The notes under the pieces are model-generated. The model had not been told where the DNA came from. It was given only the letters and a program-made list of their open reading frames with translations, and made no database searches. A stretch of 64,000 nucleotides of DNA, from IMG/VR virus record IMGVR_UViG_3300042397_002774, positions 1 to 64,000 of that record; one strand, 5' to 3'. Numbering within the stretch: the stretch's first letter is position 1; each line of letters begins with the position of its first letter. Source of the DNA: a virus. The position numbers were made by a program, and so were the translations under genes. This document shows positions 9,993 through 42,021 of this stretch, one piece after another.

Positions 9993-10613
9993 TTATTGAT
10001 GATCAGATGGTGGACAAATCATTTCTAATTCACTCCACTTAAATTTAGGTTTTTCATTTAAGAATACATAGCATTTCCATTTCTTTTGTGTTTCGAAATA
10101 GATATGTTTCTGAAGATGTGAGGGGATTGCTGCGTTTGTAGGTATTCTTTTTACAGGATTATCAAAATGAACTGTAATTAATACTGTTAAATTTTCAGCA
10201 TCATCCCACTTTCTTTCTTGTTCCTCTAATAATCTCCATTCACCTCTATTAAGGTATTGGTCTTGTAGGATACAATTTAGGTAGGAAAATGTTTGCTTTA
10301 AATTTTCTTGATTATCAGAAAATGTAGCAGCTGGTGCTCCATGTCCTTTATCGTAGATGTTTGCTTTATAGTCATCCGCGTCTGATGTTTTGATGTTTGG
10401 TTCCTTGTAGAAATCCATTGAACCCCTATTTACATTCGTGGGGCGGTTTGTTGATCTATATTTAATCTTGAGAGGTTGTTCTAAACTTTGAGAATAAAGA
10501 ACTTCAAATACATTATTTTTGATTATAATGTTTTGTGTAATTGGTATTATACCTTGACTATAAGATACAACAGCTACTAATGTTAATAGTAGGGATATTA
10601 GGCATTTTTTCAT
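9993..10613 (-). CDS. secreted DNA/RNA non-specific endonuclease (NucA/EndA family)
   Basis: signal peptide; YDKGHGAPAA, LNRGEWRLLE. Confidence 0.85.
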   Translation of the reverse strand: MKKCLISLLLTLVAVVSYSQGIIPITQNIIIKNNVFEVLYSQSLEQPLKIKYRSTNRPTNVNRGSMDFYKEPNIKTSDADDYKANIYDKGHGAPAATFSDNQENLKQTFSYLNCILQDQYLNRGEWRLLEEQERKWDDAENLTVLITVHFDNPVKRIPTNAAIPSHLQKHIYFETQKKWKCYVFLNEKPKFKWSELEMICPPSDHQ

Positions 10614-14225: not shown

Positions 14226-14486
14226 TTATTCAGTCTCGTGGTTCATAAAATTTACAAACTGAAGAGCGGCATTTGGATTTACTTGTTGTAAATGATCTAA
14301 AGTTAACTCATACCTATCAAGTTGTACATGATTTATAAAATTTTCATCACGTAAACTATCTACAGTGGATTGTAATGTTTTTACTTCAACCTTAAATTGA
14401 TTAATTCTTTCGTTCTGAAAGTAAATGGTTGTTAATAGTGCTAACAGTGAACATGCTGTTAGTATTGGGTTTATATACTGTTTCAT
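14226..14486 (-). CDS. membrane-anchored coiled-coil protein
   Basis: N-terminal hydrophobic helix plus heptads. Confidence 0.55.
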   Translation of the reverse strand: MKQYINPILTACSLLALLTTIYFQNERINQFKVEVKTLQSTVDSLRDENFINHVQLDRYELTLDHLQQVNPNAALQFVNFMNHETE

Positions 14487-14629
14487 AATACATTATCTTT
14501 ATCTTCTTCATCGAATAAATCACATCCTTTATAATCAGGATGGTTTTCTTTCATAAAATCAATTCCTACCATCCATCTCCAAGCTATCAAAGCGGATGCT
14601 AATACTATACTGATTATTGCTATTGCCAT
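14483..14629 (-). CDS. small membrane protein
   Basis: MAIAIISIVL... single TM. Confidence 0.55.
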   Translation of the reverse strand: MAIAIISIVLASALIAWRWMVGIDFMKENHPDYKGCDLFDEEDKDNVL

Positions 14630-14648
14630 TTTATTGTTGTTTATATAA

Positions 14649-15167
14649 TTAATCCCACCATCTTTCAATATTTTCTTCTAAAATACTGAATAGTAATTTT
14701 TTTGCTCTTAAATGATTTATATGACTCATATTAATAGCGATTCCATCCTTAGTGTCTTTTGAGAATGGAGGATTATCCATTTTGTTTACCGCTACCCAAA
14801 TACGAGGATATTTTATAAAATAATCATCAAAATTTTCAGATATTTCTTTCAAATCCAATTCATAATTACCTGGATGGGTTGGACTTGGAGTAGTTATGAA
14901 TTCTGTTTGATGATAATTACTATATTCATGTAAATAATATTGTGATTGTATTTTTTCAATTAAACGAGTACATAACATCATTATCTCAGCATCACGTTTA
15001 GCACTGACGTGTCTATTGTGATAACCAATGTATTTAGATTGATTCTTTAATTTGAATTTTAATATTTCCCAAATGTAATGATCATCCCAATCTTGATCTT
15101 TCCAAATAATTGGAAACCAACGAATTAGGTTACGGATACGTTTAAAAAAGCGTTTGATCTTATACAT
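14649..15167 (-). CDS. conserved phage hypothetical protein
   Basis: WFPIIWKDQDWD...ERWWD; promoter at 15172-15203. Confidence 0.7.
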   Translation of the reverse strand: MYKIKRFFKRIRNLIRWFPIIWKDQDWDDHYIWEILKFKLKNQSKYIGYHNRHVSAKRDAEIMMLCTRLIEKIQSQYYLHEYSNYHQTEFITTPSPTHPGNYELDLKEISENFDDYFIKYPRIWVAVNKMDNPPFSKDTKDGIAINMSHINHLRAKKLLFSILEENIERWWD

Positions 15168-15225: not shown

Positions 15226-15396
15226 TTACTTAGTTACAGTTGTATCATTAGGTGCGATACATTCTGTTGAATCTGTTGATACTACTGTAGAATCTGTTGA
15301 TACTGCTGTAGAATCAGTTGTAGCTTCAGTTGAAGTACCATTACCACCACATGCCGTCAAAGCTGCGATTGCGAAAATTGCGATTACTTTTTTCAT
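15226..15396 (-). CDS. small lipoprotein with TDST repeats (56 aa, not in ORF track)
   Basis: MKKVIAIFAIAALTAC lipobox; TDSTAVSTDSTVVSTDSTE; promoter at 15430-15461. Confidence 0.8.
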   Translation of the reverse strand: MKKVIAIFAIAALTACGGNGTSTEATTDSTAVSTDSTVVSTDSTECIAPNDTTVTK

Positions 15397-15463
15397 TTGT
15401 TTGTTTTTATTTAATAAATTTATTTGATGTAAATATACGATTGAGGTTTTGACCGAACCAATC

Positions 15464-16864
15464 TTATAATTGAAGTCTTGAACCTACTAGAAAGAAACTT
15501 AATATTGGAGAGCCGGGTACCGTTGATACACTAGCTTTATAATCAATGTTAAATCCAAATCTTTTGCTCAATTTAAGACTATATCCTGTGCCCACCAAAC
15601 TCATTACATTATAATTCCAAGTACTTCCTAACTTACTGTTGTATGTGTATGGAGAGGCCATTAAGAACACTCCTGGAGATAAGGTTGATTTTCTGCTTAT
15701 TTGATATGGTTTAGTCCAAAATGCTGTAGCTGAGGACATCATTGAGTATGAGTAATTATTTTCTGCTAATTTCAGTTTAATATTAATAATAGATAAGTTA
15801 TATCCATACGTTCCATATTTTGGATGAGGCACAACGTGTGTAAACCCACCAAAAGTCATATGTGTACCTGCTACGTAAGCAACGGTATATGAATAGGCAT
15901 CTATTGATTTGAGTGCTCCGTTTTTAAAATTCATCGTGCTTTTATTCGCAGATAAAGCGAATGATTTAAAATCCATCCAAATCATACTTGACACACCCCA
16001 ACTAGATTCACCTGTAGTTGATGCTTGAGACATACTTAGCGACATAACAGGTGTAAACCCACCAGTGGGGTTTTGAGCTACAGTTAAATCAGAACCCAAC
16101 ATTATTGGATTCATTTTAACTTGTTTCTTTTCTTCTTTTTTATCCTCTTTTTTTTCTTCTTTAGATTCTTCCTTTTTTTCTTCTTTCTTTTCCTCTTTAG
16201 TTTCTGATTTACTTTCTTCTTTTTTCTCCTCTGATTTAGACTCAGACTTAGATTCAGATTTACTCTCTGACTTTGATTCGCTGCTTGAACTGCTGCTTTC
16301 GCTTTTCTTTTCTCCACCAGAATTTGATGAAGAGGAAGACCCAGAGGAAGATGACGATTGGGAGGATGAAGATGAGGATGAAGAGGATGATGATTGGGTA
16401 GACGTACCACTCGAGGTAGCTGCTCCTGAACTTGCTGCTGACGCTCCTGTAGATGCGGCTCCTGAAGCTGCTCCACTTGCTGCTCCTGAGGCTGCGTTTG
16501 ATGCTGCTGAACTTGCTGCTGATGATGCTGCTGAGCTTGCTGCTTGAGATGCTGCTTGTGATACTGTATTTTGTACTGTTTGTGTTACTACGGGTGCTGC
16601 TACGGGACATGCTAATGAATTATAGTAAGCATAAGTTGTCTGGAGCCATATTTGTAATTCCCCACTTGCCACTTGTGCTGGAGTAAATGATCTTACCTGT
16701 CCATAAAATGATACTATTGAGTTGCCATTTACTATGGTTGTAGTAGCAATTTTAACTTGACCTGAACATTTATCAATAAAGGTTTGAGTAAAGATCTGCC
16801 CACTTGCTGTTTCAGCAAATAGGCAAAAAGTGATTAATAATAAACTTACTAACCATTTTTTCAT
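15464..16864 (-). CDS. exported protein: N-terminal domain, S/A- and E/K-rich linker, probable outer-membrane beta-barrel
   Basis: signal peptide; low-complexity linker; amphipathic beta strands ending FFLVGSRLQL. Confidence 0.65.
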   Translation of the reverse strand: MKKWLVSLLLITFCLFAETASGQIFTQTFIDKCSGQVKIATTTIVNGNSIVSFYGQVRSFTPAQVASGELQIWLQTTYAYYNSLACPVAAPVVTQTVQNTVSQAASQAASSAASSAASSAASNAASGAASGAASGAASTGASAASSGAATSSGTSTQSSSSSSSSSSSQSSSSSGSSSSSNSGGEKKSESSSSSSESKSESKSESKSESKSEEKKEESKSETKEEKKEEKKEESKEEKKEDKKEEKKQVKMNPIMLGSDLTVAQNPTGGFTPVMSLSMSQASTTGESSWGVSSMIWMDFKSFALSANKSTMNFKNGALKSIDAYSYTVAYVAGTHMTFGGFTHVVPHPKYGTYGYNLSIINIKLKLAENNYSYSMMSSATAFWTKPYQISRKSTLSPGVFLMASPYTYNSKLGSTWNYNVMSLVGTGYSLKLSKRFGFNIDYKASVSTVPGSPILSFFLVGSRLQL

Positions 16865-17580
16865 TAGTTTGGAAATATTCCTTTTTTAACCATTCTATCT
16901 AAAATTCTAGCACAAGCAATATCTAATGCTTTCTTTGTTGCTATAGAAATAGTTGATTGATTGAATTTCATTTCATCCACAGTTGCATCAGACAAGAATG
17001 TTAATTCTCTAGTTGTAGTTGCTTCACCTAAACCAGATGCTGCAAACACAACACCAGTCTCAGCATTAGTAAATCGAACTTGTAAACCAATACGAGTTAC
17101 CATCATGTTTTTAACTCCATCTTTTAAATTAATAGTTTCATCTTCTGATACTGAGTAATCATAACATTCGATTGTAACGAAGTATTCAGCTAGATTAATT
17201 TTACCTCTACCATCTAATTTATTTTCAGAAATACCTGCTTGTGATGCTTGGAATTGCTTAACCATTCTGTTTTTAATTTCTGTTTTATCTTCAGTAAATT
17301 TAAAACGATTAAGATTTTCTAAATATTCCATAGAGATATTAGCTACACCTAAACCAACTCTTTTTTCTTTTAATTCAGGATACATCTCATACATTTCATC
17401 AGATATACCTGCCTTTAAGATTTGAATTGGGATTTGTTTACCTTCATAATCCATAAAACGAGAAATATCAATCGCAGTTTCGAATGATGCTTTATATTGT
17501 TCAGTTTTTGTTGAACCTACGTTTTGGGCACTCACATTTATAGTCAGCAACAAACCCAATAATATTAATAAATTTTTCAT
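16864..17580 (-). CDS. CsgG/HfaB-like exported protein
   Basis: signal peptide; NRFKFTE; IGLQVRFTNAETGVVFAASGLG strand-turn motif; C-terminal helix. Confidence 0.7.
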   Translation of the reverse strand: MKNLLILLGLLLTINVSAQNVGSTKTEQYKASFETAIDISRFMDYEGKQIPIQILKAGISDEMYEMYPELKEKRVGLGVANISMEYLENLNRFKFTEDKTEIKNRMVKQFQASQAGISENKLDGRGKINLAEYFVTIECYDYSVSEDETINLKDGVKNMMVTRIGLQVRFTNAETGVVFAASGLGEATTTRELTFLSDATVDEMKFNQSTISIATKKALDIACARILDRMVKKGIFPN

Positions 17581-17595
17581 ATGTAAATTAAGTTT

Positions 17596-17618
17596 AAAAA
17601 GGGAACCTAAGTTCCCTC
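17596..17618 (-). terminator. intrinsic terminator
   Basis: GGGAAC-TTAG-GTTCCC followed by TTTTT. Confidence 0.75.
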
Positions 17619-17622
17619 TTAG

Positions 17623-17871
17623 TTAAGCTTCGGTTCCGTCTTTCTTTTTATGAGAGAATTTATCGAATGTATCTGCACCCATTCCTATACCTGTAATAAT
17701 CATTACAGCATTTACTAATTCAGCAGATGGAGCAAAATCAGCATGTGAAAATGAGTTTAACATCATTGTGATACACAAAAACATAGCTCCTACAAATGCA
17801 ATAACTGGTTTTACTGAAGTCGATCCTCTTTCATCTTTGAATAGATCGATAACCCATTGTTTGAAATTCAT
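17623..17871 (-). CDS. two-TM membrane protein (holin-like)
   Basis: two hydrophobic helices, basic C-terminal tail. Confidence 0.6.
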   Translation of the reverse strand: MNFKQWVIDLFKDERGSTSVKPVIAFVGAMFLCITMMLNSFSHADFAPSAELVNAVMIITGIGMGADTFDKFSHKKKDGTEA

Positions 17872-17889
17872 ACTTTTAATTTTTAATTG

Positions 17890-18498
17890 TTAGTGAGATT
17901 CATCGTAAGCATCTTTTAATAAACCACACTTTTGACACTCTAATTCACCGTCGTTATCTGAGTCACCCCAAACGTGTTCACAGTATCTATGTGCTTTCAT
18001 TTCATGCTCTAATTTTAATTTAGCCATTTCTTGCTCATGTTCTTGAGCATCTTTAGCCATTGCTTGATCATGTTCTTGTTGATCAGCTGCTAATTCATGG
18101 TTTTGTTTATTTTCAACTACAGCTAAATCTCTAGCTGCTGCTGCACCTGCTACAAATGCATCTGGAATTAATGGAGTGAATGGTTTGTTGCTTTCTTTAA
18201 TGTCATTAACACTACCCATACTAACACCATCTTCCTCATCCATTTTCTGAACTAACATCTTGTCCTTATCTGTATCTGAGAACCAGTAGTCAATAATCTT
18301 ACCATAAGAACCAATAAATGCACCTAATAATAACATTAATAGTTCTTTCCATGCTGCTGCCATTGGTGTTTGTCCCACAACAGCAGCAAAAATACCTGCT
18401 ATTATTAAAATAAACCCACCTAATACCATTGCTGTGATGTACCATCTTCTGGACATCATTTTATTTAATAATTCTTTAAATCCTGTGTTTGGTTGCAT
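17890..18498 (-). CDS. two-TM membrane protein with His-rich repeats and C-terminal Cys/His motif
   Basis: 2 TMs; QEH repeats; CEHVWGDSDNDGELECQKC. Confidence 0.65.
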   Translation of the reverse strand: MQPNTGFKELLNKMMSRRWYITAMVLGGFILIIAGIFAAVVGQTPMAAAWKELLMLLLGAFIGSYGKIIDYWFSDTDKDKMLVQKMDEEDGVSMGSVNDIKESNKPFTPLIPDAFVAGAAAARDLAVVENKQNHELAADQQEHDQAMAKDAQEHEQEMAKLKLEHEMKAHRYCEHVWGDSDNDGELECQKCGLLKDAYDESH

Positions 18499-18517
18499 AT
18501 CTAATTTTGTTTATAAA

Positions 18518-18838
18518 TTACCACTTTGGTGCTTCTTCTTTGAACTCGTCACCTTCTTTTTTCTTAACTGGAGCTGCTGGTTTAGCTGCTGCTGGCTTTT
18601 CAACAACTCTTTCTTTAATTATAGTAGTTCCACCTGCAGATTGTTGTTGTTGATTTGAGTTAGTAATGTTGATTACTGGAGCAGGTGCTGCAGCAGGAGC
18701 TGCTTCTTTATCACCACCTGTTAATTGAGTTACACCCCAAGTTCCTAAACCCATAACTGCTGTTGTAGCAACACCAATAATAGTCTTTTTTAATCCAGAC
18801 CAAGTACCATCATTGTTTTGTTCTAATTCTTCTGACAT
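18518..18838 (-). CDS. membrane-anchored low-complexity protein
   Basis: single hydrophobic segment followed by A/P/Q-rich tail. Confidence 0.65.
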   Translation of the reverse strand: MSEELEQNNDGTWSGLKKTIIGVATTAVMGLGTWGVTQLTGGDKEAAPAAAPAPVINITNSNQQQQSAGGTTIIKERVVEKPAAAKPAAPVKKKEGDEFKEEAPKW

Positions 18839-18849
18839 TTTATTTAAAT

Positions 18850-19218
18850 TTATAGTTTGTTAAAATCTGTTATTCCTAATTCAATACCTTTAGAATCGTA
18901 TAATCCAATTCTATAAGCAGATGAAGGCAATGCTGATGTATATACTTTAAGTAAGTTATCACCTGCTTTAACCACTACGGTTTCTTTTGATACAACTCTA
19001 TTGGAGATATCAAAAATCTTAATTGTAACGGATTGTGCTGTTTCTAACTTAACATTCATAGCAACTTCAGTTGTTACAAATGCTGATTCTAGTTTAAGTC
19101 CAACTGCATTTTGGATTTGCAATTCTTTTTTAACTTCAAAAACAGGTTCAATTAAATCATCTTTATAACATCCAGATAATCCAACTGCTAGTAATACTAC
19201 TACAAGTAATTTTTTCAT
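18850..19218 (-). CDS. lipoprotein with T9SS C-terminal-domain-like Ig fold
   Basis: LSGC lipobox; VTIKIFDISNRVV...GDN...LPSSAYRIGL. Confidence 0.65.
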   Translation of the reverse strand: MKKLLVVVLLAVGLSGCYKDDLIEPVFEVKKELQIQNAVGLKLESAFVTTEVAMNVKLETAQSVTIKIFDISNRVVSKETVVVKAGDNLLKVYTSALPSSAYRIGLYDSKGIELGITDFNKL

Positions 19219-19219
19219 T

Positions 19220-19564
19220 TTAATTAATTTTAATGGTTGTTTTAGCTATTTGAGTTCTAGACCCATCTTCTAATACTAAATATAAATATTGAGACTGTAT
19301 TGAACTCGTGTAAATTTTCTTTATATTTTCGCCCGTTTTACCAGTGAATCGTTCTCTACTAACAACTTGGTCATTTTTCTTATCAATCAGGGTTAATGTA
19401 TATACTCCTGGTGATGGTAAATCAAAATGTATAAATTGTCCATCAGTTACACTACTCTCAGATACATTAAATATCTTTTGAACAGGGGGTGGTGTTGGTT
19501 CTATTTCCATTTTAGTACACCCCACTAATAAGACCACAAATATTAGTAATATCTTTTTTATCAT
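19220..19564 (-). CDS. lipoprotein with T9SS-CTD-like Ig fold (probable paralog of 18850-19218)
   Basis: LVGC lipobox; YTLTLID...QVVSRE...GENIKKIYTS. Confidence 0.6.
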   Translation of the reverse strand: MIKKILLIFVVLLVGCTKMEIEPTPPPVQKIFNVSESSVTDGQFIHFDLPSPGVYTLTLIDKKNDQVVSRERFTGKTGENIKKIYTSSIQSQYLYLVLEDGSRTQIAKTTIKIN

Positions 19565-21837
19565 TTGATTTTTACTTTTAATTGTTTACCAGCTTTATTA
19601 ACAGCATCTGTTGTTGATATTGATGTCAACCCTAATATATCAGATATATTGCTAATCGGAGTAAATACAACTCGATATTCGGTTGTTTTATCTAATATAT
19701 CTCCATTTGTTATTAATGATCCTATGTTAATCAAATTACCTTTATCAACTCCAAAGTTAGTAGGATTACCTTTTGTTATAAATTCAACTTTTTCAAACTT
19801 TAATCTAGTATTATCATAATTTAATTGAAATTGTGTACCTACTAATTCTTGTTGTAGGGGATCTACTGACAATGTAATTATAACCTTATTATTTATAATT
19901 TCACCTATAGTTGATACATTTATTTCATTTATAATAGTATTAACCATTAAACTCATACTCCTAATTGAATTGCCACTAATATTAGTAACGCTTTGTTGGG
20001 ACGAGTGTGATTGATTTACATCACCCAACCAAGTTACATTTATGTTGTAAGTATTATTCATTCCGCTTAAAGTAAATGGAATCAAATTACGAGTTGAATT
20101 GAATTGAGTTCCCCAATTGCTCGTTGTTATAGCATCATAATCTGATTTATTGTATAGCTTTATTAAATTTGTTAGAGTAGTATTTTGGGTAAGTGATTGA
20201 GTACCTGTTAAATGTTGTAATAATTTGTATGTGTCATTTTCATTAAATACACCATTACCATCAACATCAGCATTCATATATTGAATACCATTTGTTAAGC
20301 CTAATCCACTTTGATTACCAAATATACCTCCATCTGCTAATTCCTTAAATGCTAGATAAACATCTGATACACCCACAATGTTATTATATAATGTATTCAA
20401 TTCAGTTTGATTAGTATGAGATAATTCTATCCCATGTTGTTTAAACATCATATTAGGTGTGAATGTAAATTCCGCTCTTAATCCCCAGAAAAATCCAGCT
20501 CGTCTTATACTAGATGTAAATGATGAGCCTGAGAAATTAAGTTCTGTTGGTGATGAAATCCAATAAGCTGCCCATGTTCCATCATCCCATTGATATGTTA
20601 CAGGCCCATTCCATAAATCAAATAACTGTAAACTTGTAACATTACTTGCTGAGGTGCCTTGTGGAAATTCTCTCTTATCAATTAAAATTTGGTATCGTTG
20701 ATTTTGAGGTTCATAATCATACACCACACACCACTCTACTTCTCCACCTGTTGTTGTTGCTCTTACTCCCCCACCACTTACTTTTACTGTATCTAAATCA
20801 TTTGTTAAATCTACTTTACCTAATCCACTTAATGCTCTTGATGTATTTGTTGTTACACCCCATGTATTATTTACAAACGTATTTGCTTTTGATGTAAATT
20901 TTGTTTCATCAACATTACCACCAAAATCAAAATTAAATCTTGCAGTTAATACATCTCCGTTTGTATGTGTTACTGAGTTAGTGTAGAATTCAGTGAATGT
21001 TGCATCATCTGGGTTGGTCCAAGTTCCATATTCAATTACATACGGATTTGAAAAATGATTTGGTAAATCGTTCCATTGAGAACCATTCCATTTAGTTACT
21101 GCATAATCTTCGTTACCACTATTGTTTGGTTCACCGGGTGCCCAGTTATTGTATTGGCCAGGAATGTTTCCATTTAATTGACCATTATTAATTTTAATTA
21201 AAGTTCCTGCTTCAGGTCCTGCATCAATTGTCCATCTAGCTTCACTTGCTTCATCAGTTAACGCAAACCAAATATTACTTTGAGGCACATTATTAAAAAT
21301 AAATGCATCTTCATCTGCTGAAGTGATTGTTACTAAATATCCTCTTTGTCCTTTAAATGTTGTATTTAATGATGCTGATCTTGCGTTTGTATAAGTTGCT
21401 CCGGTTGTTATTGGTCTATAAAAGTGTCCGTTTACACCATTGTAATAATATCCTACTGGATTGACTGTTGCTGCCACAGATAATGCAACATTACCTCTTA
21501 CCGAACCTGTATTTACTTTTAAAGATGCTAATGCCGTATTAATACTTACCATCGTTCCAGTAACTACTAATCGAGTTTTATTACCTGTTAAAGTGAATCC
21601 ACTTGCCGCTGTTAGACCTGTTGTTGTAGTTAAATTAAATGTTGTACCAGTTGGTGGATTAACTAAACTAATTGATGCTAATAAAGTTGCAGTAGAATTA
21701 AATCCACTTAATACAAACCCACTAGCATCTTGTCCTGATGTAGATTGTGTAAAAGATTTAGAGTCCGGAGCAGATACACTCTGTCCGAACCCTAAAAATG
21801 ATATAAATAAAAATAATGTAACTAATAGATATTTCAT
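19561..21837 (-). CDS. exported C-type lectin / dockerin-like / cohesin-like protein
   Basis: signal peptide; YLVTITSADE, WAPGEPNN, WNDL (CTLD); ADVDGNGVFNEND EF-hand-like loop; C-terminal GTQFQLNYD cohesin-like domain. Confidence 0.75.
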   Translation of the reverse strand: MKYLLVTLFLFISFLGFGQSVSAPDSKSFTQSTSGQDASGFVLSGFNSTATLLASISLVNPPTGTTFNLTTTTGLTAASGFTLTGNKTRLVVTGTMVSINTALASLKVNTGSVRGNVALSVAATVNPVGYYYNGVNGHFYRPITTGATYTNARSASLNTTFKGQRGYLVTITSADEDAFIFNNVPQSNIWFALTDEASEARWTIDAGPEAGTLIKINNGQLNGNIPGQYNNWAPGEPNNSGNEDYAVTKWNGSQWNDLPNHFSNPYVIEYGTWTNPDDATFTEFYTNSVTHTNGDVLTARFNFDFGGNVDETKFTSKANTFVNNTWGVTTNTSRALSGLGKVDLTNDLDTVKVSGGGVRATTTGGEVEWCVVYDYEPQNQRYQILIDKREFPQGTSASNVTSLQLFDLWNGPVTYQWDDGTWAAYWISSPTELNFSGSSFTSSIRRAGFFWGLRAEFTFTPNMMFKQHGIELSHTNQTELNTLYNNIVGVSDVYLAFKELADGGIFGNQSGLGLTNGIQYMNADVDGNGVFNENDTYKLLQHLTGTQSLTQNTTLTNLIKLYNKSDYDAITTSNWGTQFNSTRNLIPFTLSGMNNTYNINVTWLGDVNQSHSSQQSVTNISGNSIRSMSLMVNTIINEINVSTIGEIINNKVIITLSVDPLQQELVGTQFQLNYDNTRLKFEKVEFITKGNPTNFGVDKGNLINIGSLITNGDILDKTTEYRVVFTPISNISDILGLTSISTTDAVNKAGKQLKVKIK

Positions 21838-23492
21838 TATTCTATTATTAAGTCTATTTTATTTCCTTTAGCATCTACCGCATCTGATAATACAAAATAG
21901 AATAAACCTGCAGTATTTGTTAATTGTACTTTAGGGGTGAATATTAATTTATATGGTGTACCAATTTTGATTCTTGCTGTTTTTAATTGATCAATAGAAC
22001 CAAATGTTAATCTACCATCATTATGAGTTGAAAAGTTAGTAATAGTTGAACCTGAATCAAATATGATATTGTCTAATGTTAATTTAGATTCATCATAATT
22101 CATTATTACTTGCAATCCAGCTAATTCTGCTTTAGTTAAGGTTGTTGTTAATATTACTTTACCATTTTCTAAAGTAGATGTTACACTTAATTTAGCAGTT
22201 TCTACAGCTTCAGTTCTATATGCCATCACAGGTGTTGAACTCATTGATTTTTTCAAATTCACTTCACCATTAACTGAGTTGGTATACAACCCACTACTAA
22301 TTCTACTAGCGATTACAGCAGGATCTGATGAGTGTGACCAGTTTAAATCACCACCCCAAGCAAACACGGCGTGTACTTCTTTTATTGGAGTATCAATTAT
22401 TACTTTATTTTTTGTAACACCATCTAACCAACTCTGATTTAATAAACCACTTTGCCATCTTACTGATGTTGAGGTTGATGTTGGGATCATTGCTACTGAG
22501 CTCATATTTTGTCCCATTACGTGAGCAAACAATGCATATGAATCTGATTCGTTAAATGTATTATCATTTAACGTTATATTACCTACTTTGGTTTCTAAAT
22601 TAGGGTAAGTAAAGAAATTAGGTGTTCCACCAATATCAGTTTGAGAATGTCCTAAAAATGCTTTGTATGCATCTGATACTGTTACAATATTATTCATCCA
22701 AGATTTAGTCATTGATGGTCCTACAAACACACCTAATGAATCTCCTACTTTAACTTGTGTTGTAAATAATGCTTCACCACTAGCATCCAATGGTAATTGA
22801 GCAATAGGTTGTTGTGTCCAATCAATAGTACCACTACCATCAGTTTTCAATTTCATTAATTGAACATTATGATCAGTAATAGTATATCCTTGTGGGAATA
22901 AAACTTTTACTTTGAATTGAGATGTATTACCAGTTACATTTGTTAATGATAAATTGGTAGCATTGCGAGTAATTGGTGTAATATTAGCAGATGCATTGTT
23001 AACAGCGTAAGCTAAGTCTAATTTATGAATATCATTGTAAGTATTCTGATCTTTCAATATAAATTTTTGTGTTGCAATATCTCCATCAACTGAGGTATCT
23101 GTTCTTTGAACTGTTAATTGCCCAACATTCCAATCATTATTTACGGCATATCCCCAAGGAGTTGCTTGATATTGTCCAGATAAACTAGTTTCAGCAACAT
23201 TAGCTGCAGGAGTAAATCTGTAATTATTCCAACCTGTAAAGAATGTTTGAACTGATGTACCTTGTGAGAATACGGTACTATTTGGTACCATTGCTAATGC
23301 CTTGTTATTAAATGAATATCTCAACCAAAAATAACGAGGTGTTGTTGTACCTCTAGCTATTGTGTACTTTACAGTTAAAGTATCACCAACTTCATAAGGT
23401 GGTGCTGGAGTAACTGATTGAGACACAGTAATTTGACTAAATGATGTTAACGATGTTAGGAATATTCCTAAAAATAATAATAATTTTTTCAT
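21837..23492 (-). CDS. exported cohesin-like / dockerin-like / cohesin-like protein
   Basis: signal peptide; VGDTLTVKY..LRYSFNNKAL; VSDAY, FNESDSY; GLQVIMNYDESKL. Confidence 0.7.
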   Translation of the reverse strand: MKKLLLFLGIFLTSLTSFSQITVSQSVTPAPPYEVGDTLTVKYTIARGTTTPRYFWLRYSFNNKALAMVPNSTVFSQGTSVQTFFTGWNNYRFTPAANVAETSLSGQYQATPWGYAVNNDWNVGQLTVQRTDTSVDGDIATQKFILKDQNTYNDIHKLDLAYAVNNASANITPITRNATNLSLTNVTGNTSQFKVKVLFPQGYTITDHNVQLMKLKTDGSGTIDWTQQPIAQLPLDASGEALFTTQVKVGDSLGVFVGPSMTKSWMNNIVTVSDAYKAFLGHSQTDIGGTPNFFTYPNLETKVGNITLNDNTFNESDSYALFAHVMGQNMSSVAMIPTSTSTSVRWQSGLLNQSWLDGVTKNKVIIDTPIKEVHAVFAWGGDLNWSHSSDPAVIASRISSGLYTNSVNGEVNLKKSMSSTPVMAYRTEAVETAKLSVTSTLENGKVILTTTLTKAELAGLQVIMNYDESKLTLDNIIFDSGSTITNFSTHNDGRLTFGSIDQLKTARIKIGTPYKLIFTPKVQLTNTAGLFYFVLSDAVDAKGNKIDLIIE

Positions 23493-23497
23493 GGTTT

Positions 23498-24148
23498 TTA
23501 TTTTTCAAATAATTTTGTGACTAATTTATCACAACCTTTTTTGAGAGCATTACTTAATGAAGTTTGGTTAAATTTACCACCTTCATCCACAAGTAAAGTA
23601 GACATGGAAACTTCAGATGAAGATTCTTCAACAATAATTTCTTTTTCTTTTATACCGTCTTTATATAAGATTCCTTTTAAACGAATGATGACTTCTTCTT
23701 CACCTTTATGGAAAACTGAAATATTTTTCTTAGTAGTTAATACATCTAAATAAACAATTTCGACACGTAATTTGTTTGTAGCGTCTGATGATATATTATA
23801 GCCTTTATCTTGTAAAAATTCTTCTAATACATTTTTAACACCAAATTCTAGATTGCGATTACCTGCTAATTTACCAACAACTATTTTATTAGTAACTTTT
23901 TCAACATAGATATGTTCATCTGCGTTATACCAAATATTGCCTGGGGAATTTTTAAATGATCCGTCAATTTTATGACTAATTGCATTAGACATTTGTAGAT
24001 TTTCTTCGTGTGATTTGAAAATCTCACAATATACGAAATATAATTGTACTGCTAAGGCAGTCATTACAAGGGATCCTAGCAAATATAACACACCTTGCGC
24101 TAGTATATCACGCAGATTGGTGGCCAGGGTGATGGCTTTTTGTTTCAT
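23498..24148 (-). CDS. membrane-anchored CsgG/LptE-like protein
   Basis: N-terminal TM; shares FGVKNVLEEFL and KFNQTSLSNALKK with the 16864-17580 product. Confidence 0.55.
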   Translation of the reverse strand: MKQKAITLATNLRDILAQGVLYLLGSLVMTALAVQLYFVYCEIFKSHEENLQMSNAISHKIDGSFKNSPGNIWYNADEHIYVEKVTNKIVVGKLAGNRNLEFGVKNVLEEFLQDKGYNISSDATNKLRVEIVYLDVLTTKKNISVFHKGEEEVIIRLKGILYKDGIKEKEIIVEESSSEVSMSTLLVDEGGKFNQTSLSNALKKGCDKLVTKLFEK

Positions 24149-24175
24149 CTCTTTTAATTTTTAATGGGTTCAGAC

Positions 24176-24183
24176 ATAAATAT
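24176..24183 (-). promoter_or_regulatory. ATATTTAT motif, putative phage-specific (late/middle) promoter
   Basis: same octamer in at least 8 intergenic gaps just upstream of start codons. Confidence 0.55.
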
Positions 24184-24185
24184 GC

Positions 24186-24215
24186 AAAAAAAAGGCAACC
24201 ATTTCTGGTTGCCTT
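24186..24215 (-). terminator. intrinsic terminator after tmRNA
   Basis: AAGGCAACC-AGAAAT-GGTTGCCTT plus T-tract. Confidence 0.85.
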
Positions 24216-24223
24216 AAAAATTG

Positions 24224-24614
24224 TGGAGGTGAAGGGAGTCGAACCCTTGTCCAAATGCGGATTTAATAAATCTCGTTCACAAGCTTAGTTAGTTTTTCTT
24301 AACTAACAAAATATGAAGTTTGATGTATGTGGGAATCATACTTCCAAATTACCTGGTTGTGGAATTATTTTATGAGGGCTCCACCCTAAGACCCCCTTTG
24401 TAAACACTTCTGTTCCTAGGTTATATGTGCACCGACCCGAGTTGGACTAGGCAGCTACTGCGTAATCCGCACCAACGAATGCCATAGCATCTTCGAAGGT
24501 CATTGTAGATAATTCTACGTCATTTATTGTTCGATAGGTATTTACGGATTTCCATCTAACCCGGCTTGCATCAACTATACCAACTCATCGCACCTGTCAA
24601 AACCAGGCACCCCC
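24224..24614 (-). ncRNA. ssrA: tmRNA
   Basis: 5' GGGGGTGCCTGGTTTTGACAGG; 3' T-arm GGGTTCGACTCCC and CACCTCC-A with G3:U pair; internal tag ORF ending YAVAA*. Confidence 0.92.
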
Positions 24615-41682: not shown

Positions 41683-42021
41683 TTATTTCCAAAGTATTTG
41701 AATTGCTATAATTGTTAATCCTAATCCTATACACACTATTGTTTTTGGTGTAAATGGTTCTTTAAATAAGTAATGACTCATTATACTAAATACAACTATA
41801 CCTAAGCCAAATCCAATTAAACGGCTAGGCCATAATTGACCATTGAATGCTGCTATAAAATATTCTACTGATTTGATATAGAACCAACTTAAAGGTATGC
41901 TTATTAATAATACTAGCCAGAGGTATTTTTGGTACCATCCAAATTTCATTGCGCCTTGAAGCTGCATAAATGATCCTATTTGACCTAATAGGCCATATAT
42001 AATACCGTAAACTATTTTCAT
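41683..42021 (-). CDS. four-TM DMT/SMR-like membrane protein
   Basis: 4 hydrophobic helices, LFKEP motif before last TM. Confidence 0.6.
   Translation of the reverse strand: MKIVYGIIYGLLGQIGSFMQLQGAMKFGWYQKYLWLVLLISIPLSWFYIKSVEYFIAAFNGQLWPSRLIGFGLGIVVFSIMSHYLFKEPFTPKTIVCIGLGLTIIAIQILWK

Follow-up and report, generated by a model that had tools for sequence, protein, structure and literature searches.

Lytic phages are known to equip the host envelope with single proteins that serve exclusion or lysis. A larger gene set is found in pelagimyophages, which carry a CsgG/CsgF 'curli-related' (type VIII secretion) cluster; its function is unknown, and host aggregation ('sibling capture') was proposed for it (Zaragoza-Solas et al. 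2020, PMC7029224). A gene block of comparable kind, with genes termed A to K here (Table 1), is present in IMG/VR record IMGVR_UViG_3300042397_002774, a 160,926-bp uncultured virus with an estimated completeness of 94%; the stretch of DNA analysed here, termed the window, is the first 64 kb (64,000 nucleotides) of this record. Like the pelagimyophage cluster, the block belongs to a T4-like aquatic myophage, groups genes of the CsgG family with small unknown proteins in one operon, and lies between replication and structural modules (PMC7029224).

We hold the balance to be level on the reading developed below, namely that the block is a phage-specific, horizontally shared cassette whose products are exported into the envelope of a Bacteroidota (Flavobacterium-type) host and assemble a sugar-binding scaffold, and that it represents neither a component of the virion nor a curli system. 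The sequence-only reading, made earlier from the letters of the window, had described ten consecutive co-oriented genes that all carry a signal peptide, lipobox or transmembrane (TM) helix. The co-orientation and the export or membrane signals hold; the count does not, as the block contains eleven minus-strand open reading frames (ORFs) between 15226 and 24148.

Export signals and conservation of the block

Export signals were scored with an in-house heuristic based on N-terminal hydrophobicity and the lipobox. Sec-dependent, signal peptidase I (SPase-I)-type signal peptides followed by Gln are present in B, C, I and J. Lipoboxes are found in D (60 of 69 orthologues), E (62 of 65) and K (8 of 8), and TM segments in A, G and H, with a weaker one in F that is scored in 39 of 73 orthologues. 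At the position following the predicted cleavage site, Gln is invariant across the alignments of B, C and I, and a pattern count gives it in 68 of 86 J family members. This residue matches the Bacteroidetes Q-rule for SPase-I substrates (PMC5837995), which is evidence for genuine export as well as for a Bacteroidota host. Of the 195 ORFs in the genome, only 10 begin with a signal-peptide-like N-terminus, and seven of the ten lie inside the 8.9-kb block, which is 5% of the genome (binomial estimate ~1e-7). TM-like segments occur in 21 ORFs of the genome, eleven of them between 14.2 and 24.1 kb. The clustering of export signals is far beyond chance.

These signals bear on the possibility that the block proteins are virion or fibre components, or factors that assemble them, which we consider very improbable. 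Phage fibres often carry lectin and Ig-like adhesive domains and strong conservation is typical of core genes, but the virion proteins of tailed phages do not feature cleavable signal peptides, lipoboxes or an outer-membrane barrel. Further, the PHROG search of the block proteins matched no structural family and assigned no function to any of them, and the block lies in the replication region both in the window phage and in the cultured phage immuto described below. The sequence-only reading had taken the products not to be virion parts, and the gene position supports this: the block sits among replication/early and nucleotide-metabolism genes, far from the structural genes. An NCBIfam search of the block gave nothing above the cut-offs.

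Comparisons with other phage contigs reveal that the block is conserved as a unit. B has 89 relatives in IMG/VR at 59–95% identity and the J barrel has >145, on contigs of 4 to 334 kb. A synteny table built by tblastn over 159 fetched loci contains J in 130 loci, C in 117, A and I in 116, B in 114, G in 108, F in 107, D and E in 100 and H in 44; K is found in only 21, and the genes flanking the block in only 10–22. The order A-B-C-D-E-F-G-(H)-I-J is collinear in ~100 IMG/VR phage contigs, with J sometimes displaced to just after E, which upholds the co-conservation on which the sequence-only reading depended. The I family comprises >6000 clusters at 90% identity in a collection of 5.8 billion proteins, all of ~240 aa and none with a Pfam domain. 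In a set of one genome per species covering 185,579 prokaryote species, no I homologue is present in an isolate genome; six contigs matched, all from metagenome bins, which argues that the I family is phage-specific.

Two relatives illustrate how the block is inherited. One, of 171 kb and with terminal repeats, is closely related to the window phage (PolB 96%, terminase 98%). A second relative, L051 (G002, 202,894 bp), has a terminase that is 31% identical to that of the window phage and no homologous PolB, and it keeps the module at 50–81% identity (B 67%, C 66%, I 81%, J 58%). Judged from these identities, either the cassette has been exchanged between distant phage lineages, or it is far more constrained than the hallmark genes. 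DNA-polymerase swapping has been published for the phage group to which the window phage belongs; the contrast between module and terminase in L051 points to cassette exchange and fits such swapping. The family is very common, confined to phages, and kept across lineages that have exchanged terminase type and polymerase. Its persistence across such lineages argues for an important function tied to the envelope of aquatic Flavobacteria-type hosts; these bacteria drive algal polysaccharide turnover.

The relatives also differ in detail. In some of them the N-terminal 70 aa of A, which contain the membrane segment, form a separate small gene right before I, and a DUF2589 gene is occasionally inserted into the block. 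An extra 297-aa gene lies between C and D in 15 of 19 inspected loci (e.g. L009:4649-5539) and is weakly similar to the J barrel (23–24% identity); the window phage does not have it.

A reduced version of the block is present in a cultured phage, Flavobacterium phage vB_FspM_immuto (160 kb; host Flavobacterium sp. LMO8), where it directly follows ribonucleotide reductase (RNR) and nuclease genes, likewise in the replication region, and is annotated merely as 'lectin' and 'cohesin' proteins. It includes a lectin protein, a protein whose end is a GDVNGTG loop, a 243-aa protein annotated as cohesin, an F orthologue (gp016), an I orthologue (52% identical), a 474-aa protein with a barrel-like end in the position of J, and an A-like protein, gp019, that matches both A and I. 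The cohesin protein, gp015, ends in a tail that by eye resembles the C-terminal domain (CTD) of type IX secretion system (T9SS) cargo, which points to surface export in immuto. The pair of immuto and LMO8 makes the role of the block directly testable.

Domains of the block proteins and their possible roles

The sugar-binding part of the proposed scaffold is protein C, which passes the Pfam Lectin_C threshold (PF00059; 28.2 bits vs a cut-off of 22.6), as part of a family in which Lectin_C is found in 26 of 28 orthologues (best 5.8e-11). The site motifs E236-P237-N238 and W255-N256-D257 are invariant in 28 sequences, the best PDB matches of the domain are mannose-binding proteins, and a PDB search with the C profile found lectins only. 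These results confirm the EPN-type C-type lectin recognized in the sequence-only reading, and by sequence the domain is predicted to be a calcium-type lectin of the mannose/glucose/N-acetylglucosamine class. Canonical animal C-type lectin-like domains carry conserved disulfide-forming cysteines, and these are absent here, as residues 136–270 of C contain no Cys. Four of the 28 C orthologues (L050, L061, L068 and one more) have an LCCL insert at ~390–450, which indicates that the adhesive 'head' of C is modular.

Residues 262–551 of B are homologous to residues 480–758 of C (hhalign 99.5%), so that the two proteins share a C-terminal unit of ~280 aa. Pfam Cohesin (PF00963) matches this unit in 16 of 28 C orthologues and 9 of 26 B orthologues, at ~643–746; the best match among C orthologues has 25.0 bits vs a cut-off of 24.1 and most others lie below it, and the best among B orthologues has an E-value of 2.7e-5. 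Dockerin_1 (PF00404) is found in 12 of 28 C orthologues at ~487–545, with 14–16 bits vs a cut-off of 22.9. C holds a canonical calcium loop, DVDGNGVFNEND, at 524–535, and its first repeat is without a loop; in B the dockerin-like loop is degenerate, with positions 1 and 3 lost. The ESM Atlas neighbours of the shared unit are viral 265-aa proteins, 46% of them with Dockerin_1 and 35% with Cohesin, and PDB profile searches with the B and C alignments did not find cohesin. The unit is a marginal candidate for a dockerin-type calcium loop followed by a cohesin-type beta-sandwich. A predicted complex of B 420–551 with C 478–560 scored 0.04 vs a mark of 0.32, a result that carries no weight either way on whether they bind. 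D and E show no similarity to the B C-terminus, and a T9SS tail at the ends of B and C, considered at first, was dropped for this reason.

The AF2 model of I (pLDDT 74, pTM 0.71) is an alpha/beta domain whose top Foldseek match is CsgG (2e-6). In VIA comparisons it aligns with nearly the whole CsgG chain (Z 11.5–11.7; root-mean-square deviation (rmsd) 3.6–3.8 A over 168–169 residues), ~1 Z above its next neighbours, Cj1090c, PelC and LptE, and TraT is a distant fold neighbour (Z 6.9). Neither I nor A directly matches Pfam CsgG (PF03783); remote relatives obtained with the I profile pass its cut-off (P0211 with 43.9 bits, P0273 with 45.8 and P0259 with 32.5). A matches PF03923 (Lipoprotein_16; 27.2 bits vs a cut-off of 25), has its TM segment at ~residues 15–44, and lacks a lipobox. 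The C-terminal KFNQ[ST] helix is common to A and I, and an hhalign comparison of the two aligned this helix only (probability 33%). PDB profile searches with the A, I, B and D/E alignments gave nothing meaningful, and an ESM Atlas search with A found its own viral clusters only. I, and more distantly A, belong in the CsgG/LptE/PelC fold group, and the common helix, the common fold group and the match of immuto gp019 to both suggest that A is a distant paralogue of I. CsgG-like domains of the I subfamily are also found fused to caspase (Peptidase_C14) or Ser/Thr kinase domains (P0217, P0228, P0231, P0259, P0273).

The fold does not imply the pore. In CsgG, each subunit contributes two membrane-spanning beta-hairpins to a pore of 36 strands. 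Mature CsgG has ~262 residues; mature I has ~219 and is ~43 shorter, ~48 CsgG residues are unaligned in the VIA comparison, and the tips of the long hairpins of I are charged (SEDE...KDG). The membrane hairpins of the CsgG pore are probably missing in the modelled I. A CsgG-type secretion pore is unlikely, given the lack of a lipobox, the shorter chain and the charged hairpin tips. Thus, the CsgG-like call of the sequence-only reading stands for the fold of the 238-aa protein (Z 11.7, with relatives that pass Pfam) and is unlikely to extend to the pore. Its view that this is not a curli operon agrees with the search results, in which no CsgF, CsgE, CsgA or CsgB Pfam family occurs among 10 block proteins or their orthologues.

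The AF2 model of J contains a small N-terminal domain, a low-confidence helix (residues 91–134, pLDDT <56), a disordered linker and a confident 12-stranded barrel (pLDDT ~85); the linker region, ~90–250, runs from the Gln/Ala/Ser helix into Ser-rich and Glu/Lys-rich stretches. The closest VIA match of the barrel is the NalP translocator (Z 24.4, rmsd 3.0, 233 residues), followed by EspP (21.7), KdgM (21.0), EstA (20.9), FapF (20.5) and AIDA-I (19.8), with NanC close. KdgM, NanC and FapF lie within a few Z of the autotransporters, so that the barrel class is shared and not unique. A beta-barrel had been called from the window, and the model places it as a C-terminal outer-membrane barrel. The architecture is kept in 35 family members, and J has no match to Pfam Autotransporter. 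As modelled, J has the build of a type Va autotransporter, in which a long Ser/Ala and Glu/Lys stalk joins a small head to the 12-stranded barrel.

The combination of I and J could instead indicate a glycan export or anchor machine, in which I and the J barrel would export or retain a polysaccharide or glycolipid that the phage glycosyltransferases make, and the lectin and cohesin proteins would tie this glycan to the cell. In LptDE and PelBC, members of the fold group of I partner an outer-membrane barrel; the I and J genes have one base in common, and several glycosyltransferase genes lie 5–10 kb upstream. Moreover, a GT2 glycosyltransferase and a calcineurin-like metallophosphoesterase form a gene pair between I and J in 4 of 19 relatives (L047:16904-18419, L053, L059, L071), and the CsgG-like HfaB system, which anchors the Caulobacter holdfast, offers an analogy. 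However, for polysaccharide export a barrel of 12 strands is small, nothing resembling Wza, PelB or LptD is present, and the block has no polymerase or flippase. We regard such a machine as quite unlikely.

The remaining proteins are small lipoproteins and membrane proteins. In the D/E family, 20 of 42 members match Por_Secre_tail, the T9SS type A sorting domain (PF18962 / TIGR04183; best 0.0031), and 21 of 42 match DUF3244 (best 7.7e-5), all below the cut-off, and the T9SS-tail-like domain of D and E is the entire mature lipoprotein, not a tail on a cargo protein. F has no family match, G matches no PHROG family, whether holin or other, and the sole match of H is holin_phiLC3 (E 0.033; 14.4 bits vs a cut-off of 39.7). 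The repeats of K match what we take to be the Bacteroidota O-glycosylation sequon, D-[ST]-[AILVMT]; judged from these repeats, K could be a glycan carrier, even the ligand of the lectin.

Small membrane proteins of this type raise the question of lysis. The block, or its centre (D to H with A, I and J), might be a lysis-linked trans-envelope complex, in which holin/antiholin-like proteins and a spanin substitute assembled from inner-membrane, outer-membrane and lipoprotein components would control or carry out the disruption of the envelope in a Bacteroidota host; we judge this unlikely. G and H resemble holins in size and topology, D, E and K are small lipoproteins of the outer membrane, and A is anchored in the inner membrane, but no holin or spanin PHROG occurs among 44 F/G/H family members, a result that leaves room for an unrecognised holin. 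In one relative, an endolysin with PG_binding_1 and GH19 domains lies between the H-like gene and I (L065:16889-17716), and in two others, L019 and L027, a class-3 lipase is inserted at the same place. However, the endolysin is inside the block in only 1 of 19 inspected relatives, and the window phage has its GH19 enzyme at 155703-156302, remote from the block (~25 kb on the circular map) and among tail/baseplate-like genes. This enzyme is an orthologue of the L065 endolysin (83% identical) without the PG-binding domain. In addition, known lysis systems leave no role for a lectin protein of 758 aa, a cohesin-like protein of 551 aa or an autotransporter-like barrel.

We return to the exported, sugar-binding scaffold as the preferred reading. 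We infer a surface location and binding partners for the block proteins as follows. J would anchor the assembly in the outer membrane. B and C would join each other or the anchor, with the dockerin/cohesin-like unit as the link, and would present the lectin. I and A would serve as periplasmic ring or adaptor partners of the barrel, similar to LptE for LptD or PelC for PelB, and not as a CsgG pore. The assembly may bind or cover a conserved host surface glycan, which would block superinfection and keep progeny off debris, or it may stick infected cells to neighbours or particles. Masking of a glycan or receptor, or adhesion, is the most likely role. The sequence-only reading had put forward aggregation, exclusion of superinfecting phage and avoidance of grazing as possible roles, all of which stay conjectural.

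Several observations weigh against this reading. First, the dockerin-like segment has one calcium loop instead of two, and the window's own B and C match neither Pfam Cohesin nor Dockerin; the cohesin/dockerin call made from the window is reasonable through the orthologues, where the matches are marginal or below threshold. Second, no T9SS tail or lipobox is detected in B or C, which leaves them without a known route across the outer membrane, and both may be periplasmic. Third, the lipobox Cys of CsgG is absent from I and A, I having an SPase-I signal (..VSA/QN) and A a TM anchor. Fourth, two topologies are candidates for J, with the head either outside the cell or in the periplasm as in FapF. 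Finally, an endolysin, a lipase or a lipid-remodelling gene pair inside the block of some relatives fits a lysis or membrane job.

A more specific form of the scaffold reading is put forward tentatively. The block may encode a modular organelle on the infected Bacteroidota cell, with an autotransporter-like stalk, CsgG-fold ring parts and exchangeable lectin heads linked by cohesin-dockerin contacts, and the cassette may move between unrelated phages as a unit tuned to the host envelope. If true, this would be a new class of phage-encoded host-surface machine, whether it serves receptor masking, 'sibling capture' or glycan anchoring.

Genome, gene layout and neighbouring genes

The source of the window is a large tailed phage. 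This origin, presumed in the sequence-only reading, is borne out by a T4-type PolB (36% identity to Microcystis phage Mel-JY01), RNR, GroEL, one transfer-messenger RNA (tmRNA) and five tRNAs; the window also encodes a DnaB-like helicase, a UvsX-like recombinase, a ligase and glycosyltransferases. The genome has ~32% G+C and carries 192 of its 195 ORFs on one strand. A megablast search against cultured phages gave no match.

Table 1. Features of the block and its surroundings (window coordinates)
Feature	Position	Strand	Description
tmRNA	24223-24614	-	
tmRNA terminator + ATATTTAT	24176..24215	-	strong terminator 24215-24192, octamer motif 24183-24176; directly upstream of A
A	23498-24148	-	216 aa; N-terminal TM anchor, YajG-like (Pfam Lipoprotein_16) alpha/beta domain
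B	21837-23492	-	551 aa; signal peptide, N-terminal half without known family, dockerin-like ~266-327, W-GD-N-SHS motif, cohesin-like ~425-551
C	19561-21837	-	758 aa; signal peptide, N-terminal domain, C-type lectin 136-270, variable middle, dockerin-like loop 524-535, cohesin-like ~640-758
D	19220-19564	-	114 aa; lipoprotein, T9SS-CTD-like / DUF3244-like beta-sandwich
E	18850-19218	-	122 aa; lipoprotein paralogous to D, same beta-sandwich
F	18518-18838	-	106 aa; small membrane protein, weak TM, Pro/Ala-rich stretch, charged tail
G	17890-18498	-	202 aa; inner-membrane protein, TM 23-41, second hydrophobic stretch, charged His/Glu-rich C-terminal half with Cys cluster
H	17623-17871	-	82 aa; small membrane protein, holin-like in size and layout only
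I	16864-17580	-	238 aa; signal peptide, CsgG-superfamily alpha/beta domain; best conserved protein of the block
J	15464-16864	-	466 aa; signal peptide, two-Cys N-terminal domain ~23-88, linkers ~90-250, 12-stranded barrel 254-466
K	15226-15396	-	56 aa; lipoprotein, mature part made of repeats S-T-D-S-T-[AV]-V
ORF pair	14226-14668	-	86 aa and 61 aa; small, overlapping, membrane-type
Nuclease	9993-10613	-	206 aa; PHROG 14168 (2.9e-21), signal peptide ending ..SYSQ
112-aa ORF	41683-42021	-	three TM-like segments, adjoins the DNA polymerase gene

Gene contacts noted in the sequence-only reading are found as it gave them: I and J share base 16864, C and D overlap at 19561-19564, and B and C share base 21837. 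The same applies to the start of the block, which lies right after the tmRNA terminator at ATATTTAT. The octamer lies 28 nt ahead of the ATG of gene A, and this site is the probable start of the transcription unit of the block. ATATTTAT does not stand out as a promoter motif, since the window shows no enrichment of the octamer (16 matches vs 17.6 expected).

Three further loci outside the block encode exported or membrane-type proteins. The ORF pair directly downstream of K is kept in only 15–22 loci, and its 86-aa member has a hydrophobic start followed by a coiled-coil-like stretch. The 206-aa nuclease is, from its signal peptide, probably exported; in immuto, an exported NUC1-type nuclease, gp012, immediately precedes the lectin gene, and the exported nuclease may be a functional part of the envelope module. 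The 112-aa ORF is a possible holin candidate outside the block.

Comparison with known systems

The sequence-only reading knew of no described phage system with this composition. This claim holds for the module itself, as a literature search for the module as such found no describing paper, and it is qualified by the pelagimyophage cluster and by the reduced version in immuto. The pelagimyophage cluster contains clear CsgG and CsgF homologues near alphaproteobacterial ones and belongs to phages of SAR11 hosts (PMC7029224). In contrast, the window block has strongly diverged CsgG-like proteins without a lipobox, no CsgF, and Bacteroidota hosts, and it adds a lectin, cohesin/dockerin-like proteins, CTD-like lipoproteins and an autotransporter-like barrel.

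Similar to cellulosomal and non-cellulosomal cohesin-dockerin assemblies, the block encodes exported modular proteins with a cohesin-type sandwich, a calcium-loop dockerin-type segment and swappable heads, which in the block family are a lectin, LCCL inserts or, as in immuto, separate lectin and cohesin proteins. However, unlike those assemblies, it has marginal sequence support for these modules, a single calcium loop, both modules in one polypeptide and no enzymes, and it is phage-encoded and would act in a diderm host. J resembles the type Va autotransporters NalP, EspP and AIDA-I, and also FapF, in its order of N-terminal domain, long linker and C-terminal 12-stranded barrel; it differs from the autotransporters in a passenger of only ~65 residues and a low-complexity linker of Ser/Ala and Glu/Lys.

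I lies in the same fold group as the LptE and PelC partners of LptD and PelB (Z 8.7–9.5), and its gene likewise abuts that of an outer-membrane barrel. However, I is not a lipoprotein, J has 12 strands where LptD has 26 and PelB has 16, and the partnership proposed here follows from gene adjacency and fold. T5 Llp, the Cor proteins of phi80 and N15, and plasmid TraT are also phage- or plasmid-encoded exported proteins of the host envelope, but these are single small lipoproteins directed at one receptor each, whereas the 11 genes of the window block would form a multi-domain assembly. A multi-protein envelope assembly with a lectin and cohesin/dockerin-like connectors is conserved and so far uncharacterised. 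The block belongs with phage envelope modification and with non-cellulosomal cohesin-dockerin assemblies, and there is a fair chance that it represents a genuinely new phage-built machine of the host surface.

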